A stretch of 32,000 nucleotides of DNA from an uncultured archaeon (GCA_964510585.1 CAZECW010000003.1:1-32000); one strand, 5' to 3'; positions 3,948 to 31,827 are shown, numbered from the stretch's first letter. A program made the numbers and translations. The notes: generated from the sequence alone by a model not told the origin.

Positions 3948-5630
3948 TCACGCAGTCCTTGGGATGGCTAGCTTTCCGAGAAGAAGTTCCCTTGCAGTTT
4001 CAAATGCGGCCATGTGGTCGAAGACAGCTTTTCCTTTAACTTCCTTAGCCTTTCTTAGTAGATTTTCCTCGACTTGTCTTTTTAGCGCACCAATAGCCAG
4101 TGAGCCAATGCCGTAAACTCCGGGTTTCAACTCCTTCTTGTCATCGTTTCTGTCAAGCCCACCTATTCCCAGGGGAGGGACGGCGTTAACGTCGAGGAGC
4201 AATTTTTTCGGTTTGAGGCTTTCTACGTCTTCTCTGCTGAGGAGTTGTACACCTGCCTTTGCAACAGAGAATACCATGTCAGCGTCCTGCACTATTTCCA
4301 TTATTTGCTCCTTGTTTGGAGCGAATATTCCTTTGATTTCTACACCAAACTTTTCGTTTAGATCCGAGGCTACCGTTTTCACATATTGTACACTGGCACC
4401 AGACCAGGTTTCCACCATGTAAACTTTGCAGCCAAGCTTTGCTGCTAATACGCAGGCGAATCTTCCTACCGGTCCTGTTCCCCCTAGAACTGCAACTTTC
4501 ATTTTTTCAATATTGCCCAGATTAAGGGTAACCACGGCTTCTTCAGCTTTTGCTACCAGTGCTGAGGCGGTGGTGCAAGCTCCTCTTGGATCAAAAATTA
4601 TTGGCACTTCGAAGGGCGGCACCAAGGATTTAACGGCTTTCTCGAATATTTCCTGGGCTTGATTCACATTGCTTCCACCGACAAAGATTGCGGTGTATTT
4701 TGCGCCTTTAGGTCCTCGGGAGAATATTATGTCTTGTACCAGTCTTTGAGCGTCTTCAGGCTTTACTCCACCCAGAGGAATGACCACATCGAAACCCGCG
4801 TCGTAAGCCATATTCATGTCAAATGGACTTGCATGCTGGTCAGTATCTAAGAAGTATAATATGTGTTGTCTCTGCTCCTTCTTCTTCACAACTATGGGTA
4901 TTATTTCAACATGGTTAGATTCTAGAAGGTTAGATAGTTCAGTGCTTTCCTCTTTGCTATTTATTTCCTTTTTTGCTTTAACCACGACTAAATCTACATC
5001 TAGATCGGTGCAGAGCTTGGATATTCCGTCTGCGTGACGTGGGTCACATATGAGCATGCCGGTGACATTTTTCTTTTTGATTTCTCTTGCCTGATTTAGG
5101 ACGCCACTCATTATCCACGCTTCGCGAACCCTAAATTTTATGTCGTCTTCAATTTCCTTCAAGTTTTGTTCAAAGTATTGAGCCAAAGTAGCCAGTTTTA
5201 GGAAGTTTTCATCATTCTTTTTTGCTTCTGGATTTTTGGCTAGGACTTTCGTAATCTGTTCAATTAGAATGTTTCTTAGTTCCTGTTTTCTGCTCATTGT
5301 GGACCAGATGTAGTCGCGGGCGTTATCTGCAATGTCCACATAGCTGTAAGGGATTCCATGTTTTTTAAAAACATCCACTAGAGGATTATCGTATAGAAAC
5401 TCTTCAATGCTTCTCATCCCCCTCTCCTCAAGGCAAAAGTCGGGTTTGTACTCTTCGACCATCTTGTTTATGAATTCCCTGTACTCCTTGGACATTATTC
5501 TCAGTTCTGAGAAAAAGTCTTTAGGAGGATTGAATGGTTCTAGCAGGTACCAGTCGATTCCGTATTCGCTTTCAACCATAACCAACCTTAGTTTCTGTCC
5601 CTTCAGTGGCTCTAACTCTAAAACTTCCAT
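3948..5630 (-). CDS. Fusion: N-terminal uncharacterised ~220-250 aa domain plus C-terminal NAD(P)-dependent methylene-H4MPT dehydrogenase (MtdB/MtdA family)
   Basis: From residue 256: SPFDMNMAYDAGFD, QDIIFSRGP, AIFVGG, DPRGACTT, LGGTGPVG, DVNAVPPLGI, GIGSLAIG, matching MtdB-family motifs (SPFDVNMAIDAGF, QDSIFSR, DVNAVPP). GGAGG RBS precedes the ATG. Confidence 0.88.
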   Translation of the reverse strand: MEVLELEPLKGQKLRLVMVESEYGIDWYLLEPFNPPKDFFSELRIMSKEYREFINKMVEEYKPDFCLEERGMRSIEEFLYDNPLVDVFKKHGIPYSYVDIADNARDYIWSTMSRKQELRNILIEQITKVLAKNPEAKKNDENFLKLATLAQYFEQNLKEIEDDIKFRVREAWIMSGVLNQAREIKKKNVTGMLICDPRHADGISKLCTDLDVDLVVVKAKKEINSKEESTELSNLLESNHVEIIPIVVKKKEQRQHILYFLDTDQHASPFDMNMAYDAGFDVVIPLGGVKPEDAQRLVQDIIFSRGPKGAKYTAIFVGGSNVNQAQEIFEKAVKSLVPPFEVPIIFDPRGACTTASALVAKAEEAVVTLNLGNIEKMKVAVLGGTGPVGRFACVLAAKLGCKVYMVETWSGASVQYVKTVASDLNEKFGVEIKGIFAPNKEQIMEIVQDADMVFSVAKAGVQLLSREDVESLKPKKLLLDVNAVPPLGIGGLDRNDDKKELKPGVYGIGSLAIGALKRQVEENLLRKAKEVKGKAVFDHMAAFETARELLLGKLAIPRTA

Positions 5631-5661
5631 TATTCGCCCTCCAAAATAATTTTTTAGTTTT

Positions 5662-6306
5662 TTAGTGTACCAATTCAGTTTGCCTCACACTGGTAGCTGA
5701 TCTCATCGGCAGAACTACCAAGTCTGTTTCGCTCATTTGTTTTGCTAATTCATTGAATAGATTGGATGGGGTGATGTGTATGCAGGTTACTTCTTTTTCA
5801 GGCACTTCGCTGGCCAGGTCGATTAATTGTTTTATTATCCACCTGGCGGTTATCACAGTGTTCATGTATTCCTCTTTTCCGTCTGCTTCCTTCTCGTAGA
5901 ATTCTATTAGGGATTTCAGGTTTTGTGCCTTGTAGGTGCTCGCGTTTTTAGGGTTCTCAGAGAGGAATCTTTCCAATTCTTCCTTTAATTCTTCTATTTT
6001 TTCTCTTAGGTCATCTATTTCCTGTTCCAAATATAGTCGGGCGTTTTGGGGTATTCCTAATCTGAAGAGTGGAACCCCTAACTCTCTGAATTCTTCCGTA
6101 TTCACGCTCTGACCGTTAACGCCAAACATGCAATCTTTGTCTGCAGTGATAAAGTCGGGATGATAGGTTAGAATAACGTTTAGTAAGGAGTTATCGGCCT
6201 GTTCGGTGAAGCAATCAGAATTTTTGGAAGCCTGGGAATTTCCTTCTTCATACAATACCACCGTGAGGATTTTCCCACGCAATTTTTTAATTTCCAATTC
6301 TTCCAT
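5662..6306 (-). CDS. Uncharacterised protein, stand-alone paralog of the N-terminal domain of the downstream Mtd fusion, with a coiled-coil insert
   Basis: GGAGG RBS before ATG 6306 (MEELEIKK). 31 nt gap to the next co-oriented gene. Aligns colinearly with residues 1-217 of ORF 3948-5630. Confidence 0.8.
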   Translation of the reverse strand: MEELEIKKLRGKILTVVLYEEGNSQASKNSDCFTEQADNSLLNVILTYHPDFITADKDCMFGVNGQSVNTEEFRELGVPLFRLGIPQNARLYLEQEIDDLREKIEELKEELERFLSENPKNASTYKAQNLKSLIEFYEKEADGKEEYMNTVITARWIIKQLIDLASEVPEKEVTCIHITPSNLFNELAKQMSETDLVVLPMRSATSVRQTELVH

Positions 6307-6394
6307 CTTTTTCCTTCCTCCATTTATTCTCTGGTTAAACAATAGAAGGATGTTAGGATTTAAAACTAATCTTAACTTGTCTTTTCTGAATTAT

Positions 6395-6410
6395 GACAAT
6401 TTTAATTGTC
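6395..6410. promoter_or_regulatory. Palindromic operator candidate 1 (GACAA-N6-TTGTC)
   Basis: GACAATT-TT-AATTGTC. Lies about 30 nt upstream of a minus-strand TTTTAAAT box (6358-6365) serving the leftward operon. Confidence 0.65.
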
Positions 6411-6549
6411 TTGAAAATTGTTGTATAGTTTGAATAAAAAGAGGAAAATTCATTTTTTTTGACAATTAAATTTTATTCCAAAAATTGTCTGGCAAGTCAA
6501 TTTTATTAATCCAGTTACGATAGCCATTAAGACAATAAGAATGATGTAT

Positions 6550-6569
6550 TTGACAAATATAATTGTCAA
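6550..6569. promoter_or_regulatory. Palindromic operator candidate 2 (TTGACAA-N6-TTGTCAA)
   Basis: TTGACAA-ATATAA-TTGTCAA. Lies just upstream of GAAAA-TTTTTATTAA (6581-6595), the BRE/TATA candidate for the rightward operon. Confidence 0.65.
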
Positions 6570-6620
6570 TTTTAATTTACGAAAATTTTTATTAACCAAT
6601 AAACTCTCCTTGATAAATTG

Positions 6621-9167
6621 GTGAAAAAATATAACGCAGTGACACAGATGGACTTATATAATGTTTTAGGCCACCCTCTCAGAAGAAAAATCCTCCTATT
6701 ATTAGAAAAAGAGGGTTACATGCAGTACTCAGATCTTCTCAAGGAGCTCAACATTGAAACAACGGGACAGTTGAATTTTCACCTCACAAAGCTGGGGAAC
6801 CTAATTACCAAAGAGGGAAAGGCTTACAAGCTCTCGGAAGAAGGAAAAACGGTCATCAAAATAATGGAGTTAAATGAGAAGATTCTCTCAGGTGAAGAGA
6901 TAGAAAGAATCGAGTCTCGAAAAACTGAGTTAAGCCGCGTGGGGATACTTATCTGTACCTGTGGTTCAGAGATTGAGCAGTCAATTAGTGTTGAGGCTTT
7001 GAAGAACCGTGTGTCTCGCATAAATAATGTGGTGTCCGTTGCGGTTTTTGATAATCTTTGTCAGGAGAAGAATCAGAAGAAGATTCAGAAATGGTTTAAG
7101 GACAATTTCATAAATAAGGTGGTTATTGCTGCCTGCAGTCCTCGTACGCACTCTCATATATTTAACCGCATATTTGAGAATCTTATACCCATAACAAACA
7201 TTGATTTTGCTAATATTAGGGAGCAATTATGCTGGGTGAATTCTAAAAAGCCTGTTGAAGCCTTGGAAAAAGCGGGGTTACTCATTGAGGCTGCTGTGGA
7301 GAGGGTTATCCTTCAAAGAGAGATTAAAACCAAAACTGTTGAGGTTCAAAAAAGCGTGGCTGTTATTGGTGGGGGCATTGCGGGTATGAATTTGGCTTTA
7401 AAGTTGGCGGAGGCCGGGTTGAAAGTTTATCTTATTGAAAAGTCGCCTACTCTGGGGGGGAAGGTTGCAAGGTGGAGCAAGATTGAGGGCGTCCTAGACT
7501 GCGCATCCTGTTTCCTCTCGGAACAGATTCTGTATTTGGTGCAGGAGAAAAATATTGAGATTCTCACCAATACTGAAATTCTATCCGTTTCTGGAAATGC
7601 GGGGAACTTCACCATTGAATTGGTTCGCAAGCCACGTTACGTGGATGAAAATAAGTGTACTGGTTGTAAACGGTGTATGAGTATATGCACTATTACTAAG
7701 AAAAACGAGTATGAGTACGGTTTGGATGAGAGGAAGCTAATCTACATTCCCTTTGTTCAGGCCTATCCTTATGCGGCGACCATAGATGAGGAGGATATTG
7801 AGAAATGTAGAGAATGCCGGGTCTGTGAAAGAGCCTGTCTAAATAAAGCCATAAATCTGGATCAGAAGCCTACAACAATGACCATAAAGGTTGGGGCAAA
7901 AGTTCTGGCAATTGGCTCCGACCTTTACCAAGACTTAAAGCTTTATAATCATAACCCGCGTTGGGACATCGTCACCTCTGCGGAGTTTGAGAGAATTCTT
8001 GCCTCTGACGGTCCCACACAGGGCAATCTTGTAAAACTTTCTGATGGCAAGGCGCCGCAAAAAATTGTAATTATTCAGGGTGTGGGCGATTACAGTCTTA
8101 GTTCCGATTACTGTTACATACTGTCCAGAAAGTATCTAGAAGCGATTCGGGAGAAGCTTCCCAGCTGCGAAGTTAAAGTTTTTATAGAGAACAGTAAGAG
8201 CGCTGCAAATAGGTTGGCACTCGCTAACCTGCCGGAAACTGTTCATACTGGCAAAGTATTAGGGATAAAAGTGGAGGGCGAAAGGAAAGTGATAAGTACT
8301 GAGAGGGGAGACTTTGAATCAGACATGGTTATTCTAAACATAGGTATGGTTCCAAGTAGGGAGCTGGCTGAGCTTCGCAAAACTTTGGATTTCGCTTTTG
8401 ATGATAAGGGTTTTATGTCCAAAGAGACACTGAGCTCAGGGATTTTTGGGTGTGGGACTGTTACCGGGCCTAAAGATTATCACACGGCTATAGCGGAATC
8501 TAATGAAGTAGCTCTTCAAATAATTTCTCTATTATCAAGGGATTATTTACTTGCAGACATTAGCGGTATAGATATTGACTATGATAAGTGTGGTTTATGC
8601 GGTTTGTGTATGTCTGTCTGCCCCTTTAACGCTATATCCTGTGAAGACGACAGGATTACCATTGACGATTTCAAGTGTAAGGGCTGCGGAGTCTGCGTAA
8701 GCATTTGCCCCACAAAGGCATTGGAGATGAATGTGATAACAAGAGAAAAGATTCTCAGATCCATAGAAGTTTATAGCAAGTATAGCCACAAACCCAAAAT
8801 TATGGCTTTTTGCTGTGAGCATTGCGGGTATGCGGCGGCGGATGAGGCGGGCCTAAGGAAAATACAGTACCATCCCAATATTTTCGTTGAAATGGTTCCC
8901 TGTACTGGTAGAGTGGACACCGAGTTTATTTTAAAGGCGTTGGAAAAAGGATTCGATGGGGTGCTAGTTGTAGGGTGTAAGTATGGCTCATGCAGGTACA
9001 TAGATGGAATCAACAAGTTGGAGAAAAAAATCAAAATACTGAAAGATGTGGGAATTCCCCAAATAGAGGATAGACTGGTTCTTTCATCGCTAAACGCGGT
9101 GGAAGGCTACAGGTTCGCAGAGATAGTGAACCTAATGCAGAATAAATTGTCGGAGATGATGATGTGA
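6621..9167 (+). CDS. hdrA: Winged-HTH :: HdrA-like flavoprotein :: MvhD triple fusion (start GTG 6621, or TTG 6618 / ATG 6648)
   Basis: Residues ~10-85 are an ArsR-like wHTH (LGHPLRRKILLLL...GQLNFHL..L...Y.LSEEG). HdrA motifs: ICTCG, AACSP, NIREQ, IGGGIAG, DCASC, EFER...GP, GPKD. Four CxxCxxCxxxC motifs. C-terminal MvhD motifs: FCCxxCGYAAAD, PCTGRVD, GCxxGSCRY. Confidence 0.9.
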   Translation: MKKYNAVTQMDLYNVLGHPLRRKILLLLEKEGYMQYSDLLKELNIETTGQLNFHLTKLGNLITKEGKAYKLSEEGKTVIKIMELNEKILSGEEIERIESRKTELSRVGILICTCGSEIEQSISVEALKNRVSRINNVVSVAVFDNLCQEKNQKKIQKWFKDNFINKVVIAACSPRTHSHIFNRIFENLIPITNIDFANIREQLCWVNSKKPVEALEKAGLLIEAAVERVILQREIKTKTVEVQKSVAVIGGGIAGMNLALKLAEAGLKVYLIEKSPTLGGKVARWSKIEGVLDCASCFLSEQILYLVQEKNIEILTNTEILSVSGNAGNFTIELVRKPRYVDENKCTGCKRCMSICTITKKNEYEYGLDERKLIYIPFVQAYPYAATIDEEDIEKCRECRVCERACLNKAINLDQKPTTMTIKVGAKVLAIGSDLYQDLKLYNHNPRWDIVTSAEFERILASDGPTQGNLVKLSDGKAPQKIVIIQGVGDYSLSSDYCYILSRKYLEAIREKLPSCEVKVFIENSKSAANRLALANLPETVHTGKVLGIKVEGERKVISTERGDFESDMVILNIGMVPSRELAELRKTLDFAFDDKGFMSKETLSSGIFGCGTVTGPKDYHTAIAESNEVALQIISLLSRDYLLADISGIDIDYDKCGLCGLCMSVCPFNAISCEDDRITIDDFKCKGCGVCVSICPTKALEMNVITREKILRSIEVYSKYSHKPKIMAFCCEHCGYAAADEAGLRKIQYHPNIFVEMVPCTGRVDTEFILKALEKGFDGVLVVGCKYGSCRYIDGINKLEKKIKILKDVGIPQIEDRLVLSSLNAVEGYRFAEIVNLMQNKLSEMMM

Positions 9168-9922
9168 AACTAAAATTTTCAGCAATCTCCCTTAACTCTT
9201 GCAACGGTTGCATCTCCACCCTTACCTGTCTAGATGTTTTCCTCAACCTTGTAAAATCCGCGGAAATAGTATACTTCCCCTTTGTTGAGGACTCCTACCC
9301 CGCCACAATAAAGGAAGACGAAGAACTAAAATATTCTGACGTTACCCTTGTTGAGGGATGTGTTACCCAGAAGGATGAAGAAATATTACTGAAAAAGCTG
9401 CGAAAAGCATCCAAAAAAATAATTGCACTCGGCGCCTGCGCTATGTTTGGGGGGATAGAAAGCCTATCACAGAATGCTCGAAGGGACCCTCTCTCTAAAA
9501 TCATAGAAATCGATGGATGTATACCGGGTTGCCCCCCACCTGAAAATGTTCTGGGAGCATCTATACTTTCACTAATTGAGGGCAGGAATCTTCCCGAAGC
9601 AAGCAGGAATCTCTGTGCAGTTTGCGATTTGAGGCCCAAACTGGAAAAATTCAAAACAATCCGTATAGAGAAATTACAACCCCAAAAGTTTCCCACCAGC
9701 TGTTTCCTCGACGAAAACGTGCTCTGTTTAGGTCCGGTGACCCGTGAAGGATGCGATGCAAAGTGTATCAAAGTGGGGCTGCCCTGTGAGGGGTGTATGG
9801 GGCCTCCCAACGGTTTAGACTATACTGCTAATGTAATCAACTTCCTCTCAACACTGGAATTATCAGAAAAGTTGAGAACTTATGAAGGAATTATTTTTAG
9901 GCTTCGCCGCCCAAGGACGTGA
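9164..9922 (+). CDS. mvhG: [NiFe]-hydrogenase small subunit, MvhG/VhuG-like (group 3c-type)
   Basis: SCNGC, VEGC, LGACA, PGCPP, plus distal CAVC..CFL..CLGPVT..GC...C...PCEGCMGP. GTG start overlaps the hdrA stop by 4 nt (GTGA). Confidence 0.88.
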   Translation: MKLKFSAISLNSCNGCISTLTCLDVFLNLVKSAEIVYFPFVEDSYPATIKEDEELKYSDVTLVEGCVTQKDEEILLKKLRKASKKIIALGACAMFGGIESLSQNARRDPLSKIIEIDGCIPGCPPPENVLGASILSLIEGRNLPEASRNLCAVCDLRPKLEKFKTIRIEKLQPQKFPTSCFLDENVLCLGPVTREGCDAKCIKVGLPCEGCMGPPNGLDYTANVINFLSTLELSEKLRTYEGIIFRLRRPRT

Positions 9923-9928
9923 AATGGA

Positions 9929-11260
9929 ATGAAGAAAATTATTGAACCGGTTACAAGAATTGAGGGACACGGGAAAATAACAGTATACCTTAATGATAAG
10001 GAAGTCTCCAACGCTAATTTTGACATGTATCTACCTCGAGGATTCGAAAAAATTTTAGTGGGAAAATTGGTGGAAGATGTTCCCAGAATCACATCCCGAA
10101 TATGTGGACTCTGCTCCTCAGCACACGCAATAGCAGCCTGCAAAGCATTGGAAAAAATATATGACGTTACCCCATCTAAATCCTCCATTCTTATGAGAAA
10201 ACTCCTCCTTGCCGGAGAGCTTATAAGATCCCATGCATTGCACTTCTTTTACTTTGCACTTCCCGACCTAAAAGCATTGATAGAAAATGATTATGAAAGG
10301 TATAGTGTCCAACAGTTCTCAAAAATAGAAACAGACCTAGTTGAAAAATTGTTCAGAGTAATTAGAATTGGAAATGAGCTCCTAGACCGCATTGGGGGAA
10401 GGGTACCCCACCCAGTAACCAGCGTAGTGGGCGGAATCTCTAAAAAATTAACAGAAAAAGAAGTGGTAGGACTACAGTCTAACCTTAGAAGAGGCGCCAG
10501 CACAGTGAGAGGAATAATAGAGAAACTATTAGAGTACATGGGTAAGATTGGTGAGCCGCAAGAATTCTTCAACATGGACGAAACAGCATTTATGGCACTA
10601 AATGAAGGCGGCAACTTCAACCTATATGAAGGAAAACTCCGCATCACCAAAGAAAAAAAGATTCTGGCAGACTTCGAACCAGAACAATACACCAAATACA
10701 TAGAAATTGAGAAAAAATCACAGGGAATCCAAATTAAACTTAACGGAGAAAAGCTAGTATTAACCGGGCCCATGGCCAGAAACCAAATAATCGAGAGATA
10801 CGGGGCCTACGAAGTACACAGCTTGATGGAAGAAGTGCCCACCAGCTGGAAGGAAAGCCTTCTTTACTCAAACTTTCTCAGACTCATAGAAATACTTGCC
10901 TCGATATACGATGCAATACTCATACTCAACGAGCCAGAACTAATGGAAGAACGAGAACTTCCCCAACTCAACAAAATCGCCACACCAATAGGCATCGGAG
11001 TGGTAGAAGCACCCAGAGGAACACTAATACACCAGTACAAAGTAAACACTAAAAACACAGTTGAATCAGCAACCATCATCACCCCCACAGAACTCAACCT
11101 CCCCACCATCAACCAAAAATTACTAGAAACATGCAGAGACAGCTACCAAAACACACAAAACATAGAGAAACTAAAAGAAAACGCAAAAAGAGTCATAAGA
11201 ACATTCGACCCCTGCGTCTCATGCGCAACCCACCTAATCGTCAAAATAATCCACCAATAA
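9929..11260 (+). CDS. mvhA: [NiFe]-hydrogenase large subunit, MvhA-like
   Basis: EPVTRIEGHG, PRGFE, L1 RICGLC, EAPRGTLIH, L2 DPCVSCATH followed by an 8-aa extension. Confidence 0.9.
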   Translation: MKKIIEPVTRIEGHGKITVYLNDKEVSNANFDMYLPRGFEKILVGKLVEDVPRITSRICGLCSSAHAIAACKALEKIYDVTPSKSSILMRKLLLAGELIRSHALHFFYFALPDLKALIENDYERYSVQQFSKIETDLVEKLFRVIRIGNELLDRIGGRVPHPVTSVVGGISKKLTEKEVVGLQSNLRRGASTVRGIIEKLLEYMGKIGEPQEFFNMDETAFMALNEGGNFNLYEGKLRITKEKKILADFEPEQYTKYIEIEKKSQGIQIKLNGEKLVLTGPMARNQIIERYGAYEVHSLMEEVPTSWKESLLYSNFLRLIEILASIYDAILILNEPELMEERELPQLNKIATPIGIGVVEAPRGTLIHQYKVNTKNTVESATIITPTELNLPTINQKLLETCRDSYQNTQNIEKLKENAKRVIRTFDPCVSCATHLIVKIIHQ

Positions 11261-11555
11261 AATAACCACAGAAAGATTTCATCTCAAACAATGACACCTC
11301 AAAACACTTTTAAGATGGAAAAAATAAAAATTCAAGCATCCAAGACGGACACCAGCACCTCCAAGGCTTATGCAGCTTTATGCGTAACAGTATGGAGAGA
11401 GCTTGAGGTCCTCGGTAAAATACGCTATTTGGTCTATAACGAAGTGAAATTCAAATTCAACACAAGCCTACATCGAACAAAATATTACATAATTAGTTAT
11501 TTCGATATTGTCTTTTATACAAAGGTTTATTTTTTATTTCCACGAAAAGAAGGTT

Positions 11556-13892
11556 ATGATAACGAATCCTGATGAGTATTTGTTGAGGAGTGATAAGTGG
11601 TTCGTAGGTGGAGGAACCGCTGCTTTATGGGCTCCCTGTTTCCCGCTACATCTCGATACCTTAGGGTTTTGGGATTATGGCTACTACCTAGATCAGAAAC
11701 TTCCACACATATTCACGATAACCGTGTTAGATGAGCAGTTAAATCCTATAAACTTTAACGTAATTGAGCGAGTTTGGAGACCAAGCAGTCTCTCTCAGAA
11801 GTTCGTGGCTGAAGACCTTAGCATTGAGGAGAACAAACTTCTAACACCTACCAATGTGTTTGTTTCCCAAATGGATGTAGTAAACAATGGGAACAAGGAT
11901 AAGCGTTATCACTTCATAATGTGGACAAAGCTGGATCGTAGACCCCCGAAACTAATGCCCATCAGATTAACTTACCCATTTGACTATGAAGGACTGACCT
12001 ATACTAATCCTAAAATTATAAATAATACTGCTGTTTTTTCTCAGGAGGAGCTACATACAAACAGTGAATGCAATTACCAAGTGTGGTACGCCCTGGGAGC
12101 AAAGGAAAAACTGGATTCTTACACCATAAATTTAAGTGAAAATTTCCACATCAGCCTGGGCTCTCTAGAAGACCGACCACTATGGATAGTTACCCCCTTC
12201 CCAGAGAAGATTTCTGATGGAAAATTTAAGAATGAGGATATTCCTGAAAAACCTTTTAGCGAGTTTGGTAGCATCTATGTGGGCCTCCATTACACCATTG
12301 ACCTGCAGCCAGAGTTCCACAAATATACTTGGTTTGCTTGCAGCGTGTCCCATGATAAGGACAAGTGTTTAAATAATCTTAAAGAACTTCAAGACAAGGA
12401 TCCTCTTAAATTAAGCCGGCAGAACTGGAAAGATTTTTTCAACAGTGTACCAAGCTTCGAGTGCTCAGACCCTTATATCACCAAATATTATTGGTACCGC
12501 TGGTACGGTTTAAAACTAAACATGATAAATGTTGGCGAAAATAACCACAAGTATCCTATCATATATGAGGGGATAGGGGAGAGAGATGGAGGCTGGTTCC
12601 GACACCATATTTCATACAGTGCCCAGTGTCACATGATTGAGTGCTCCTGGATGCATGAACCCTTAGTGGCGAAGGGTTCATTGCTTGGACTTCTATCAAA
12701 TATCCATAAAAACGGAGCAATACCTGGGGGAGTGGGTTTCAAGGGAAAAACAGATGACTGGTTCATCTATCATGCAAATTATGCAAAGGGAATTTTACAA
12801 ATATACCAGATACACCCCGATATTCAATTTTTTGAACAGATTTATCAGCCTCTCGCCAAGTACGCTAAATATTTCGACAGGCAGCGAGACCAGGAGAATA
12901 GTAGTCTTTACGATGTAACTCAGCAGTACGAAACTGGTCAAGAGTATAATGCACGCTACCTGTTTGCCGAAGAAAATGCTGATAGGGATGTTACGTTTAG
13001 GCTAAAAGGTATCGACGCTACAACTTATATTTACGAGTTAAAGAAACTCTTAGCGTTTATGGCGCAGGCGCTGGGGAAAAAGGAGGAGAGTGAAAGGTGG
13101 GCTGTTGAGGCTAAAAAAATTAAGGAGAATATTTTAAAGTTTATGTGGAATCCGGAGGAACAGTTCTTCTTTGATGTGAAACCAGAAACCTTTGAACCTT
13201 CAAATGTCAAGGCAGCAGTTTGTTTCTATCCCTTTATGACCGATATAGTGGATTCTAAGCACTTAGGCGCTATATACAAACATCTCTTAAATCCAGAAGA
13301 GTTTTGGACTTCCTATCCGGTGGCCACACTTGGCAAAGACCATCCTCTTTTTAATCCTGAGGCCGAATGGAAGGGAATTCGAAAATACTGTCCTTGGAAT
13401 GGCCGAGTCTGGCCTATGACCAACAGCCACATATGTGACGTTCTGGCACGAACCGCTTACCACATAGATAACTCTCTTAAAAGCAAGACGGCCCAATTTC
13501 TAAACAAATTTATTCGAATGATGTTCTTCCAAGAGAATCCAGAATTACCAAATTGCTATGAGCACTACAATCCCTTTACAGGTTACCCCAGCAGCTACAG
13601 GGGCGTTGACGACTATATGCATTCCTGGATTGTTGATTTAATCATAAAATATATAGTGGGGTTCCAGCCTCAAACGGAAAACGAGGTGGTTCTCGACCCA
13701 CTACCATTCGACCTTGAATACTTCACCCTCAACAACTTGCTCTATAAGGGACACAAAATAAAAGTCACATGGAGAAGGAAAAAAATTGACAAAGAAAAAG
13801 AAGGATTCTGCCTCTACATTGACAATAGACTAGTAGCTAAGAAAACACAACTTGAAAAAATTAGATTAAAATTAAATAATCAAAAACAATAG
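11556..13892 (+). CDS. Glycoside hydrolase with (alpha/alpha)6 barrel, GH63/MGH1-like (trehalase/mannosylglycerate hydrolase clan)
   Basis: YETGQEYNARY (compare GH63 ESGxDNSPR), YPF, EEFWTSYPVAT, WNGRVWP, YEHYNP. Probable start is ATG 11556. Confidence 0.75.
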   Translation: MITNPDEYLLRSDKWFVGGGTAALWAPCFPLHLDTLGFWDYGYYLDQKLPHIFTITVLDEQLNPINFNVIERVWRPSSLSQKFVAEDLSIEENKLLTPTNVFVSQMDVVNNGNKDKRYHFIMWTKLDRRPPKLMPIRLTYPFDYEGLTYTNPKIINNTAVFSQEELHTNSECNYQVWYALGAKEKLDSYTINLSENFHISLGSLEDRPLWIVTPFPEKISDGKFKNEDIPEKPFSEFGSIYVGLHYTIDLQPEFHKYTWFACSVSHDKDKCLNNLKELQDKDPLKLSRQNWKDFFNSVPSFECSDPYITKYYWYRWYGLKLNMINVGENNHKYPIIYEGIGERDGGWFRHHISYSAQCHMIECSWMHEPLVAKGSLLGLLSNIHKNGAIPGGVGFKGKTDDWFIYHANYAKGILQIYQIHPDIQFFEQIYQPLAKYAKYFDRQRDQENSSLYDVTQQYETGQEYNARYLFAEENADRDVTFRLKGIDATTYIYELKKLLAFMAQALGKKEESERWAVEAKKIKENILKFMWNPEEQFFFDVKPETFEPSNVKAAVCFYPFMTDIVDSKHLGAIYKHLLNPEEFWTSYPVATLGKDHPLFNPEAEWKGIRKYCPWNGRVWPMTNSHICDVLARTAYHIDNSLKSKTAQFLNKFIRMMFFQENPELPNCYEHYNPFTGYPSSYRGVDDYMHSWIVDLIIKYIVGFQPQTENEVVLDPLPFDLEYFTLNNLLYKGHKIKVTWRRKKIDKEKEGFCLYIDNRLVAKKTQLEKIRLKLNNQKQ

Positions 13893-30609: not shown

Positions 30610-31827
30610 TCAAATTTTAAACAAGTCCACTATGTCCAAAACTGGTATGCCCTCTTTTTCTGCCACTAAGCGCAGGTTGTTCTCACAGAAGGGGCACACA
30701 GTCACAATATAATCTACTCCCACCTCTTTTGCGTCCTCCACCCTCACCCGCGCAATTTTTTCAGCGAGATTCGGGAACGCTGATTTTACCCCTCCACCCG
30801 CTCCACAGCACCAAGCAGCGGTTCGATTACGTTTCATCTCAATAAACTCTAAGCCGGGCACCTTTTTTATTATTTCGCGAGGCGGCTCATAAAAATCGCA
30901 GTGACGACCAAGGTGGCAAGGATCATGATAGGTTACTTTCCTATTTTTGAAATCCTCCCTAAATTCCAGCTTCCCCTCCGCCAGTAGTCGATTTAGAATT
31001 TCGGTTATGTGAACCACCTTGAAGGGCAACTCTTTTCCGTAAATATCGGGATAGTCTTTTTTGAGGGTCCGATAGCATCCTGCACAGTGAACAACCACCT
31101 CTTTTGCACCAGCGTCTTGTAACGCCTTTATATTATGTAAGGCAAGCTCCTCTGCCAGGCTACGCATACCCGTTCTAAGCGCTACTGAGCCGCAGCAGTA
31201 CTCTTCAGGATGTATCAAAGCAGGCCGCACCCCCGCAGAGAGCAGTAGCTTTATAGTTTTTCGGATGATTTCTGGTTGCCTGTAAGGTTCGGTGCACCCC
31301 ATAAAGAACACAAGCTCGCCCCTAGACGGCAAATCAACCCCCTCCGGCATCCAGACAATCCTATCCTTATGCAGTTCCATGTAGGGATTATGCTCCTTTT
31401 TGCACCACTCCAAAATTTCCCTGTGTCGAGTCATAGGCCCGTAACCCGCATCAACCAAGTCAGCCCTCAACGCCTCGTAAATCTTGGTGTGATCCAAATA
31501 TTTTCCTATGCTAAGGTTAATATTTGGATCCATAGATTGGTGGCATGTTGCGTGGCAGTCTCCACACGTAGTGCACTGGTATATAACGTTGGCTAATTCC
31601 TGGCTGAGCTTCAGTCTTCCCTCGATGAGCCCGCGCACTATCTGCATTTTTCCACGTGCAAAGAAGGGCTCGAAACCTGGAGTGTGTTCCAGCACTGGGC
31701 AAACCTTGTATCTGCCAACAGTGTATCTCACCGCAATGCGGCAGTCACCGCAGGCAATGCAGCCATATAAGATGTCTCCTAGTTTTTTGAGGTGTCTCAG
31801 TTTCCCGATTTCTTGAGTATTAGTCAT
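30610..31827 (-). CDS. HdrD/GlcF/GlpC-like Fe-S oxidoreductase (2x[4Fe-4S] plus two CCG domains)
   Basis: CIACGDC..CP, CTTCGDCHATC, FMGC, CCGS, HCAGC, YHDPCHLGR, CCGAGGG, VCPFC. Confidence 0.92.
   Translation of the reverse strand: MTNTQEIGKLRHLKKLGDILYGCIACGDCRIAVRYTVGRYKVCPVLEHTPGFEPFFARGKMQIVRGLIEGRLKLSQELANVIYQCTTCGDCHATCHQSMDPNINLSIGKYLDHTKIYEALRADLVDAGYGPMTRHREILEWCKKEHNPYMELHKDRIVWMPEGVDLPSRGELVFFMGCTEPYRQPEIIRKTIKLLLSAGVRPALIHPEEYCCGSVALRTGMRSLAEELALHNIKALQDAGAKEVVVHCAGCYRTLKKDYPDIYGKELPFKVVHITEILNRLLAEGKLEFREDFKNRKVTYHDPCHLGRHCDFYEPPREIIKKVPGLEFIEMKRNRTAAWCCGAGGGVKSAFPNLAEKIARVRVEDAKEVGVDYIVTVCPFCENNLRLVAEKEGIPVLDIVDLFKI

Follow-up and report, generated by a model that had tools for sequence, protein, structure and literature searches.

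A winged helix-turn-helix domain fused to an Asgard HdrA-MvhD hydrogenase subunit and its predicted operator: a candidate self-regulating enzyme

Why should a subunit of a hydrogenase complex carry a domain of the DNA-binding type? The question is raised by a 32,000-nt stretch of DNA from an uncultured archaeon (GCA_964510585.1, CAZECW010000003.1:1-32000; hereafter the window), in which gene calling and domain searches place two divergent transcription units in the region 3948-11260. One unit encodes a protein in which a winged helix-turn-helix (wHTH) domain precedes an HdrA-like flavoprotein and an MvhD domain, together with the [NiFe] hydrogenase subunits MvhG and MvhA. The other encodes an uncharacterised protein and a fusion of an N-terminal domain to an MtdA/MtdB-like dehydrogenase (hereafter the Mtd fusion). 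A preliminary description of this DNA had proposed a self-regulating divergon for redox and one-carbon (C1) metabolism. Comparison of the locus with its relatives suggests that the enzyme subunit probably does autoregulate a regulon of two units through its fused wHTH, and that this regulon is narrower than was first proposed.

The fusion itself is authentic and ancient, and not an artefact. As the preliminary description had stated, wHTH, HdrA and MvhD are joined in frame in a single open reading frame (ORF), with matches to PF24038/DUF7347 (44.5 bits, cut-off 27.6), to the HdrA2-like core model NF040770 (582 bits, residues 107-847 of ORF 6618-9167) and to PF02662 (MvhD/FlpD, 114.5 bits). The wHTH had been placed from about nt 6648 onwards; since all homologues start with MD(I/L)YS.L.HP and one close relative carries an in-frame stop just 5' of that start, ATG 6648 is indeed the true start. 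Two independent contigs from two other studies, X3 (6557-7209) and X2 (6712-7190), show no difference from the window across the junction. A third contig, X7 (6308-7353), comes from a related strain with about 4.5% substitutions, in a run labelled metatranscriptomic that is probably DNA, and its indels are confined to the intergenic DNA. The stop or frameshift between wHTH and HdrA that had been raised as a possible objection is thus seen in none of these contigs, and the fusion is kept in over 100 homologues from Asgard archaea (38-100% identity). The window DNA also recurs in hot-spring metagenomes.

The combination of PF24038, HdrA and MvhD is present in all 120 of the best database homologues (54-100% identity), whose source names include Lokiarchaeota, Helarchaeota, Thorarchaeota, Hermodarchaeota, Hodarchaeota and Odinarchaeota, the nearest named homologues being those of Candidatus Jordarchaeum. 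A survey of 200 genomes from the phylum gives full-length matches in five Asgard families, the most distant of them at 37-40% identity. The family is nevertheless compact, as the wHTH/HdrA junction is spanned by just 6 clusters among 1.84 billion cluster representatives. It is also patchy even among close relatives, because a complete one-contig genome of the same genus (G038) contains no full-length wHTH-HdrA: it has wHTH-less HdrA paralogues only, and its best match (37% identity) begins at residue 105. Several such wHTH-less paralogues in the same genus (G038:C1:6039-8360, G082:C584 and G064:C99) hold three to four in-frame TGA codons, which is consistent with the selenocysteine-containing HdrA reported for Asgard archaea; the wHTH-type hdrA gene of the window has none. 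Finally, three proteins of 310-441 aa (P0154, P0164 and P0269) contain a close relative of the same wHTH in an internal position (around residues 160-240) instead of at the N-terminus.

Is the fused domain of a kind that binds DNA? A profile of its first 96 residues matches the ArsR-like protein 1y0u of A. fulgidus (E 7e-6) and PagR (0.008), and some homologues additionally match PF12840 and PF13412. The AlphaFold2 model of the wHTH (predicted local distance difference test, pLDDT, 89) has the order α1-α2-α3-αR-wing-α5, with helices at residues 3-7, 10-22, 27-33, 39-52 and 64-81 and strands at 53-56 and 59-62. The recognition helix is TTGQLNFHLTKL, the wing spans residues 53-62, and dimerisation is predicted to involve the C-terminal helix (64-80). 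All Foldseek neighbours of this model are DNA-binding wHTH regulators (ArsR, CadC, SmtB, HlyU, YodB and QsrR), with template modelling scores of 0.55-0.71 for the top matches ArsR, CadC, SmtB, HlyU and YodB. The loss of recognition-helix residues in homologues, another objection raised at the outset, is not what the family alignment shows: the helix is almost unchanging (T-G-x-L-N-F/Y-H-L-K-K-L), and R12, K14, T39, G40, N43, H45, L46, K48 and K55 are invariant or nearly so. Mean identity is 0.60 in the wHTH, against 0.54-0.57 in the catalytic domains and 0.44 in the linker, the lowest value of all segments. Across the family the domain is basic (median net charge +5, isoelectric point 9.6), with lysine and arginine kept on the recognition helix and the wing. 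These sequence features support the view that the wHTH is a genuine ArsR-like domain of the DNA-binding type, under strong purifying selection.

In the full-length model (pLDDT 85.9), residues 83-93, which join the wHTH to the HdrA N-domain, fall below 50 and the wHTH is not packed on the core, so that the domain would appear to hang on a disordered, flexible tether. When two copies of the wHTH were modelled together, the score was 0.43, against 0.04 for the best control. Among proteins of solved structure, 20 of 30 homodimers and 1 of 23 single chains get as far, and the wHTH may do so on account of its likeness to solved ArsR dimers. The runs have at least 84% of their contacts in common, with a partner pLDDT of 81 or above. 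The modelled interface (residues 1-13 and 68-80) is of the classical ArsR α1/α5 type, which is a matter of likeness and not of binding.

Which DNA might such a domain recognise? The two perfect palindromes announced for the intergenic region are there (6395-6410 and 6552-6567, both GACAA-N6-TTGTC). In relatives at 97% and 86% protein identity, the arms are kept and the spacers changed; the distal palindrome is kept in both relatives, and two of the three half-sites lying between the palindromes are conserved in the 86%-identity one. The generalised motif is TGAYAA-N6-TTRTCA. Within 300 nt 5' of the orthologous gene, it occurs exactly at 17 of 29 loci (0.01 in shuffled sequences), and with at most one mismatch at 22 of 29 (0.43 in shuffles). 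Loci from two further clades, f12 (40% identity) and f7 (38%), were fetched only after the motif had been defined from these first 29; all eight carry a site with at most one mismatch, 44-143 nt 5' of the gene, against 0.04 in shuffles. In four other loci, two exact sites lie about 1.3 kb upstream, before an FrhB-like gene located 5' of hdrA and in the same orientation. Overall, the predicted operator is present in 36 of 41 assessable loci. The 43 distinct site sequences have fixed arms and a free spacer, and sites are concentrated in upstream DNA (48 in 16.8 kb, versus 10 in the remaining 186 kb of the loci).

The site is also highly specific at the genome scale. The exact motif occurs once in the 3.78-Mb genome, at 6551-6568. 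With a matrix built from other genomes only, the two window sites, at 6550 (26.1 bits) and 6393 (21.7 bits), rank first and second genome-wide; the third match reaches 14.8 bits and lies within an open frame of 147 aa, and no other exceeds 15 bits. Five Loki-like genomes contain three to eight exact sites each, one or two of which are located at wHTH-hdrA. A wider regulon was considered and rejected: the four other sites inspected, in two Loki-like genomes, are inside ORFs, and nothing else in the window genome scores above 15 bits. Across the fetched loci, the neighbourhood conserves no further gene for a DNA-binding protein.

The genes mvhG and mvhA follow wHTH-hdrA in all 42 fetched loci. 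The position of the Mtd-fusion gene varies: in families f1 and f9 (about 18 of 30 loci) it is divergent and upstream, with the 214-aa gene as a conserved divergent neighbour, and in f12 and f7 it lies 3' of mvhA on the same strand, where it has its own palindrome about 100 nt 5' of its start in 7 of 8 loci. Most of the 10 sites found outside upstream DNA precede the Mtd-fusion gene in this downstream position. Both units thus share the operator whatever their arrangement, and in the window each operator lies about 90 nt from the ATG of its own unit. At loci with other neighbours, be it an Lrp-type gene or a canonical paralogue of HdrA, the wHTH-hdrA promoter keeps the site. For example, the divergent neighbour in L012, L014, L018 and L020 is a canonical, wHTH-less HdrA paralogue instead of the Mtd unit, and the palindrome is present. 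The divergent arrangement that gave the locus its first name is therefore real in the window and in f1 and f9, and is specific to these lineages. Likewise, the proposed control of tetrahydromethanopterin (H4MPT)-linked C1 genes is retained for the Mtd-fusion unit, which carries a site; being the only C1 unit that does so, it leaves a narrower regulon than had been envisaged. The idea of a self-regulating enzyme-regulator is borne out as far as its sequence signature goes, namely an ArsR-like wHTH, a tether and a conserved, genome-unique predicted site at both promoters.

The features of the region are listed in Table 1.

Table 1. Coordinates of genes, domains and predicted sites in the two divergent units of the window
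Feature	Position	Strand	Remarks
Fusion ORF	6618-9167 (true start ATG 6648)	+	wHTH + linker + HdrA + MvhD, 839 aa
wHTH, ArsR/SmtB-type	6648-6887	+	residues 1-80; PF24038 match
Flexible linker, wHTH to HdrA N-terminal domain	6888-6935	+	low pLDDT and low conservation
HdrA-like flavoprotein core	6936-8783	+	N-domain [4Fe-4S], GGGIAG FAD site, inserted and C-terminal ferredoxin domains
MvhD [2Fe-2S] domain and stop codon	8784-9167	+	PF02662; PDB MvhD chains, E 6e-24
mvhG-like [NiFe] small subunit	9164-9922	+	PF01058 and VhuG model
mvhA-like [NiFe] large subunit	9929-11260	+	PF00374 and VhuA model, 192 bits
Proximal operator (predicted), TGACAA-ATATAA-TTGTCA	6551-6568		80-97 nt 5' of hdrA ATG
Distal operator (predicted), TGACAA-TTTTAA-TTGTCT	6394-6411		88-105 nt 5' of ATG 6306, divergent operon
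Extra GACAAT/ATTGTC half-sites	6459-6467, 6484-6490, 6527-6533		between both operators
Uncharacterised 214-aa protein	5662-6306	-	divergent unit, gene 1; ATG 6306
N-domain + MtdA/MtdB-like dehydrogenase (Mtd fusion), 560 aa	3948-5630	-	divergent unit, gene 2; PF09176

As the preliminary description had it, the fusion gene is co-transcribed with complete [NiFe] subunits: the GTG start of mvhG overlaps the hdrA stop by 4 nt (GTGA), which points to translational coupling, and the gap between mvhG and mvhA is 6 nt. On the other strand, the 214-aa gene and the Mtd-fusion gene are separated by 31 nt that include a GGAGGG ribosome-binding site. Promoter geometry does not tell an activator from a repressor: TATA candidates are hard to single out in DNA so rich in AT (the intergenic region has 27% GC), and the sites lie about 20-35 nt 5' of such candidates in the window but 44-70 nt from the ATG in f12. 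DNA looping between the operators was considered and dropped, their spacing being 157 bp here (about 15 helical turns) and 119-234 bp in other loci. An Rfam scan of 6150-6750 gave no match, and hence no known riboswitch or small RNA in this interval. In L010 (4120-5265), L011, L022 and L025, an FrhB/FdhB-like gene (PF04432, PF04422 and a 2x[4Fe-4S] motif) stands between the operators and wHTH-hdrA and is apparently the first gene of the operon in these Loki-like genomes. Directly 3' of mvhA, a 93-aa ORF (11291-11572) has no Pfam match and a single, marginal NCBIfam match (E 0.0046); part of it is shared with the beginning of a GH63/MGH1-like glycoside hydrolase gene (11508-13892).

What kind of enzyme carries the wHTH? 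The HdrA core aligns to PDB 8rvu and 5odc (E 1e-114), its GGGIAG motif for flavin adenine dinucleotide (FAD) aligns to that of 8rvu, and PF07992 is matched. No variation is seen in the FAD motif, in the cysteines of the N-domain cluster or the pair next to the flavin, in either ferredoxin domain or in the MvhD ligands (invariant within HdrA: C103, C105, C138, C163; C337-C347, C387-C397; C648-C658, C677-C687). Both Ni-Fe motifs of the MvhA-like subunit, RICGLC and DPCVSCATH, are present. For the hydrogenase subunits and MvhD, VhuA, VhuG and VhuD are the NCBIfam models that match best; all NCBIfam scores are far below the equivalog cut-offs (582 vs 1100 for the HdrA2-like model; 192 vs 800 for VhuA). 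The hydrogenase module (MvhA, MvhG and an MvhD fused to HdrA) thus appears to be of the group 3c type.

One cofactor site is missing. The four-cysteine motif of the thioredoxin-reductase domain (around 8073-8147), which we take to be HA4 from its position and from the 5ODC work, is reduced to one cysteine of four in the window genome and in f1 and f9 (Jord-/Loki-like). It is retained in f12, f7 and f16, and as these three other wHTH-HdrA clades keep it, its loss is derived and does not track the wHTH. The HA4 cluster hands the high-potential electron from FAD to HdrB (PMC13580544). Binding of NAD(P) by HdrA as a replacement for the lost cluster was considered and rejected, there being no second GxGxxG in the relevant segment. 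In agreement with the original statement that hdrB and hdrC are missing from the locus, no CCG/HdrB gene adjoins the operon, nor is one found in the 42 loci examined. The genome as a whole contains about 35 genes with CCG domains (HdrB/HdrD-type), one of them at 30610-31827, which makes for unusually many potential partners for several HdrA paralogues. Because the cluster at the HA4 position is lost and hdrBC is not adjacent, the module is unlikely to perform classical heterodisulfide-linked bifurcation.

The Mtd fusion and the paralogue encoded beside it are candidates to take the place of HdrBC. The dehydrogenase had been recognised as Mtd-like from the start, and this holds, the protein resembling the NAD(P)-dependent methylene-H4MPT dehydrogenases: PF09176 (Mpt_N, 105 bits) is followed by a Rossmann domain, and residues 256-556 match the MtdA structures 6tlk, 6tge and 1lu9 at E 1e-38 to 1e-39. 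The extra N-domain of 255 aa is outside the MtdA/MtdB family, and the 214-aa protein is its paralogue (N-domain at 4866-5630; 22% identity, E 3e-9 by BLASTP). An uncharacterised domain of about 220 aa therefore occurs twice at the locus, once free-standing and once as the N-terminus of the MtdA-like protein, and both proteins are conserved partners of the hydrogenase operon. A TraB/GumN identity for this domain was a weak lead from the Atlas (score 0.79, below the guide value of 0.9) and was not adopted.

We propose that the HdrA-MvhD subunit of this group-3c-type hydrogenase would also be a transcription factor. Its N-terminal wHTH, on a flexible linker of about 15 residues, would dimerise through its first and last helices and bind the 18-bp palindrome TGAYAA-N6-TTRTCA, at one site before its own operon (wHTH-hdrA-mvhD, mvhG and mvhA) and at another before the Mtd-fusion unit. 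The subunit would in this way autoregulate, as we consider probable, a two-unit regulon that couples the H2 module to one C1 step, in the H4MPT branch of the Wood-Ljungdahl pathway. That the fused wHTH is the protein that binds the predicted operator is something that we strongly infer: a genome-unique ArsR-type palindrome accompanies both the gene of an ArsR-type domain under strong selection and its partner gene, and binding of the palindrome by the domain is the simplest account of this. PutA and RbkR (discussed below) offer analogies that make it plausible for operator occupancy to follow the state of the enzyme, either the redox state of its FAD and Fe-S centres (fed by H2 or ferredoxin) or its assembly with MvhAG. 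More tentatively, one may imagine that the FAD and Fe-S centres of the HdrA dimer take their state from electrons delivered by H2 or ferredoxin, and that this repositions the two tethered wHTHs and so directly switches the hydrogenase operon and the C1 dehydrogenase gene; this is a possible scheme, and a doubtful one.

Several points weigh against our proposal. Part of the data had been viewed before the motif was defined, and genomes that are related do not count as independent, a weakness mitigated by the held-out clades and by the use of a matrix excluding the own locus. The five loci that have no site all belong to family f16, which keeps the wHTH and shows a degenerate TGTAAA-N6-TTATCA only. 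The wHTH of the window genome, with a net charge of +1, is less basic than most. Classical ArsR sensors use metal or thiol sites (cysteine and histidine at α3N or α5); the wHTH has no cysteine in residues 1-96 and no conserved metal-ligand cluster in the family alignment. The operator could also belong to an unlinked regulator. Lastly, the wHTH motif of BamF, in the HdrA-type complex of class II benzoyl-CoA reductase, serves as a contact surface between proteins, namely with BamI, and does not bind DNA (bioRxiv 10.64898/2026.04.10.717634).

The BamF case leads to the main alternative, namely that the wHTH is a docking arm that recruits a partner, such as the Mtd fusion or its paralogue, and that a separate, unlinked factor binds the palindrome. 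The Mtd fusion and its paralogue would suit this role as conserved partners with an uncharacterised domain, as would the small positive charge of the wHTH in the window. Docking would, however, leave unexplained why a genome-unique ArsR-type palindrome and the gene of an ArsR-type domain co-occur from 38 to 100% identity and in three layouts. Furthermore, the best-conserved part of the domain is the recognition helix with the lysines and arginines of the wing, the linker is disordered and the wHTH unpacked from the core in the model, and no other regulator gene is conserved nearby. We thus regard docking as unlikely.

Alternatively, the whole MvhAG/HdrA-MvhD assembly may be mainly a sensor of H2 or redox state, a one-component counterpart of the regulatory hydrogenases and not a metabolic enzyme. 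The loss of the HdrBC-directed four-cysteine cluster in the clade of the window, with hdrBC not adjacent, fits this possibility, as do a regulon that amounts to a single locus and hydrogenase subunits that diverge faster across clades (27-49% identity) than HdrA (38-58%). Yet every other cofactor site is preserved, also in the two ferredoxin domains from which ferredoxin normally receives its electrons, and other clades keep the four-cysteine cluster. FrhB-like or canonical HdrA genes join the unit in some loci, which suggests real electron flow, and group 3c hydrogenase and hdrA are among the most transcribed metabolic genes in Asgard metatranscriptomes, where paralogues are not distinguished (PMC11291895). 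A dedicated sensor is accordingly quite unlikely. As for a mis-assembled junction, a mis-called start or palindromes arising by chance, the AT-richness of the intergenic DNA and the lack of enrichment of the loose one-mismatch pattern in the window (3 vs 1.15 expected) would leave some room for the last of these, and all are refuted, with practically no probability left to them, by the independent contigs, the homologue-wide fusion with its shared start, the motif enrichment, the held-out clades and the genome-wide ranking.

How does a wHTH-bearing HdrA that probably regulates its own operon compare with known systems? The nearest enzymes are MvhAGD-HdrABC of methanogens (5ODC, 8RVU and 7BKB) and HdrA2 of Methanosarcina, itself an HdrA-MvhD fusion (NF040770). 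Shared with them are the HdrA core, the FAD site, the N-domain cluster, the cysteine pair near the flavin, the ferredoxin domains, MvhD, MvhG and an MvhA with a complete Ni-Fe site. The module of the window differs from them in the added N-terminal wHTH, in the lack of adjacent hdrBC, in the loss of the cluster at the HA4 position and in having an MtdA-like partner gene in place of the heterodisulfide-reducing module.

Among enzyme-regulators, PutA of E. coli and Salmonella is a flavoenzyme with an N-terminal DNA-binding domain that controls its own gene from operators in the divergent putA-putP region, the redox state of its flavin toggling the protein between DNA and catalysis. The likeness to the window lies in a flavoenzyme with an N-terminal DNA-binding domain, a divergent control region and the own gene as a target; PutA differs by its ribbon-helix-helix domain, its proline chemistry, its membrane association and its bacterial host, and is not homologous. 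RbkR, an archaeal riboflavin kinase with a wHTH-like domain, has operators 5' of its own gene and of pathway genes, which were predicted by comparative genomics and then validated, and its substrate and product tune DNA binding (PMC5397151). It shares with the protein of the window the fusion of an archaeal enzyme to a wHTH-like domain and the sites before its own gene, but is a small soluble kinase with small-molecule effectors instead of part of a multi-cofactor redox complex. The ArsR/SmtB regulators (1Y0U, PagR 2ZKZ, CadC 1U2W and SmtB) have the same fold order (α1-α2-α3-αR-β1-β2-α5) and the α1/α5 dimer that is predicted here; their inverted-repeat operators and autoregulation have a counterpart in the window that is predicted from sequence. 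They occur unfused, at about 100 aa, and carry sensing sites of the metal or thiol type, whereas the "effector domain" of the window protein would be a redox enzyme of 740 aa. Finally, HoxBC/HupUV with HoxJ-HoxA and SurR of Pyrococcus tie H2 or redox state to the transcription of hydrogenase genes. Unlike the protein of the window, HoxBC signals via a separate kinase and response regulator, and SurR, with its CxxC switch, is a wHTH protein in its own right; in both cases there is no fusion to the enzyme.

Full-text literature searches found no paper that describes a helix-turn-helix on an Asgard HdrA. Papers on HdrA fusions, on Asgard selenoproteins, on methanogen Hdr complexes and on the hydrogenases of Freyarchaeia and Atabeyarchaeia treat such genes as ordinary HdrA or group 3c. 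What is new here is that the two palindromes would belong to a conserved operator, as predicted by the comparison of loci. Models of Asgard physiology and of the syntrophy underlying eukaryogenesis give H2 metabolism and the Wood-Ljungdahl pathway a central place, yet to our knowledge almost nothing is known of how Asgard archaea regulate either of them. The locus supplies a defined regulator domain, an 18-bp predicted operator and a minimal regulon, conserved in several Asgard lineages, and because all three are defined, the regulation of the coupling between H2 and C1 metabolism becomes directly testable. The link to the Mtd fusion, together with the loss of the HdrBC-directed cluster, suggests a "group 3c/HdrA" module that works without classical heterodisulfide-linked bifurcation, a point of consequence for metabolic reconstructions in which it is annotated as MvhADG-HdrABC. 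If our proposal is true, this would be the first hydrogenase-complex subunit known with a DNA-binding domain of its own, and the "trigger enzyme" principle of PutA and RbkR would reach multi-cofactor redox complexes. If, in addition, the enzyme acts as a sensor, Asgard archaea of several lineages would possess a conserved, direct route from enzyme to DNA for hydrogen sensing.

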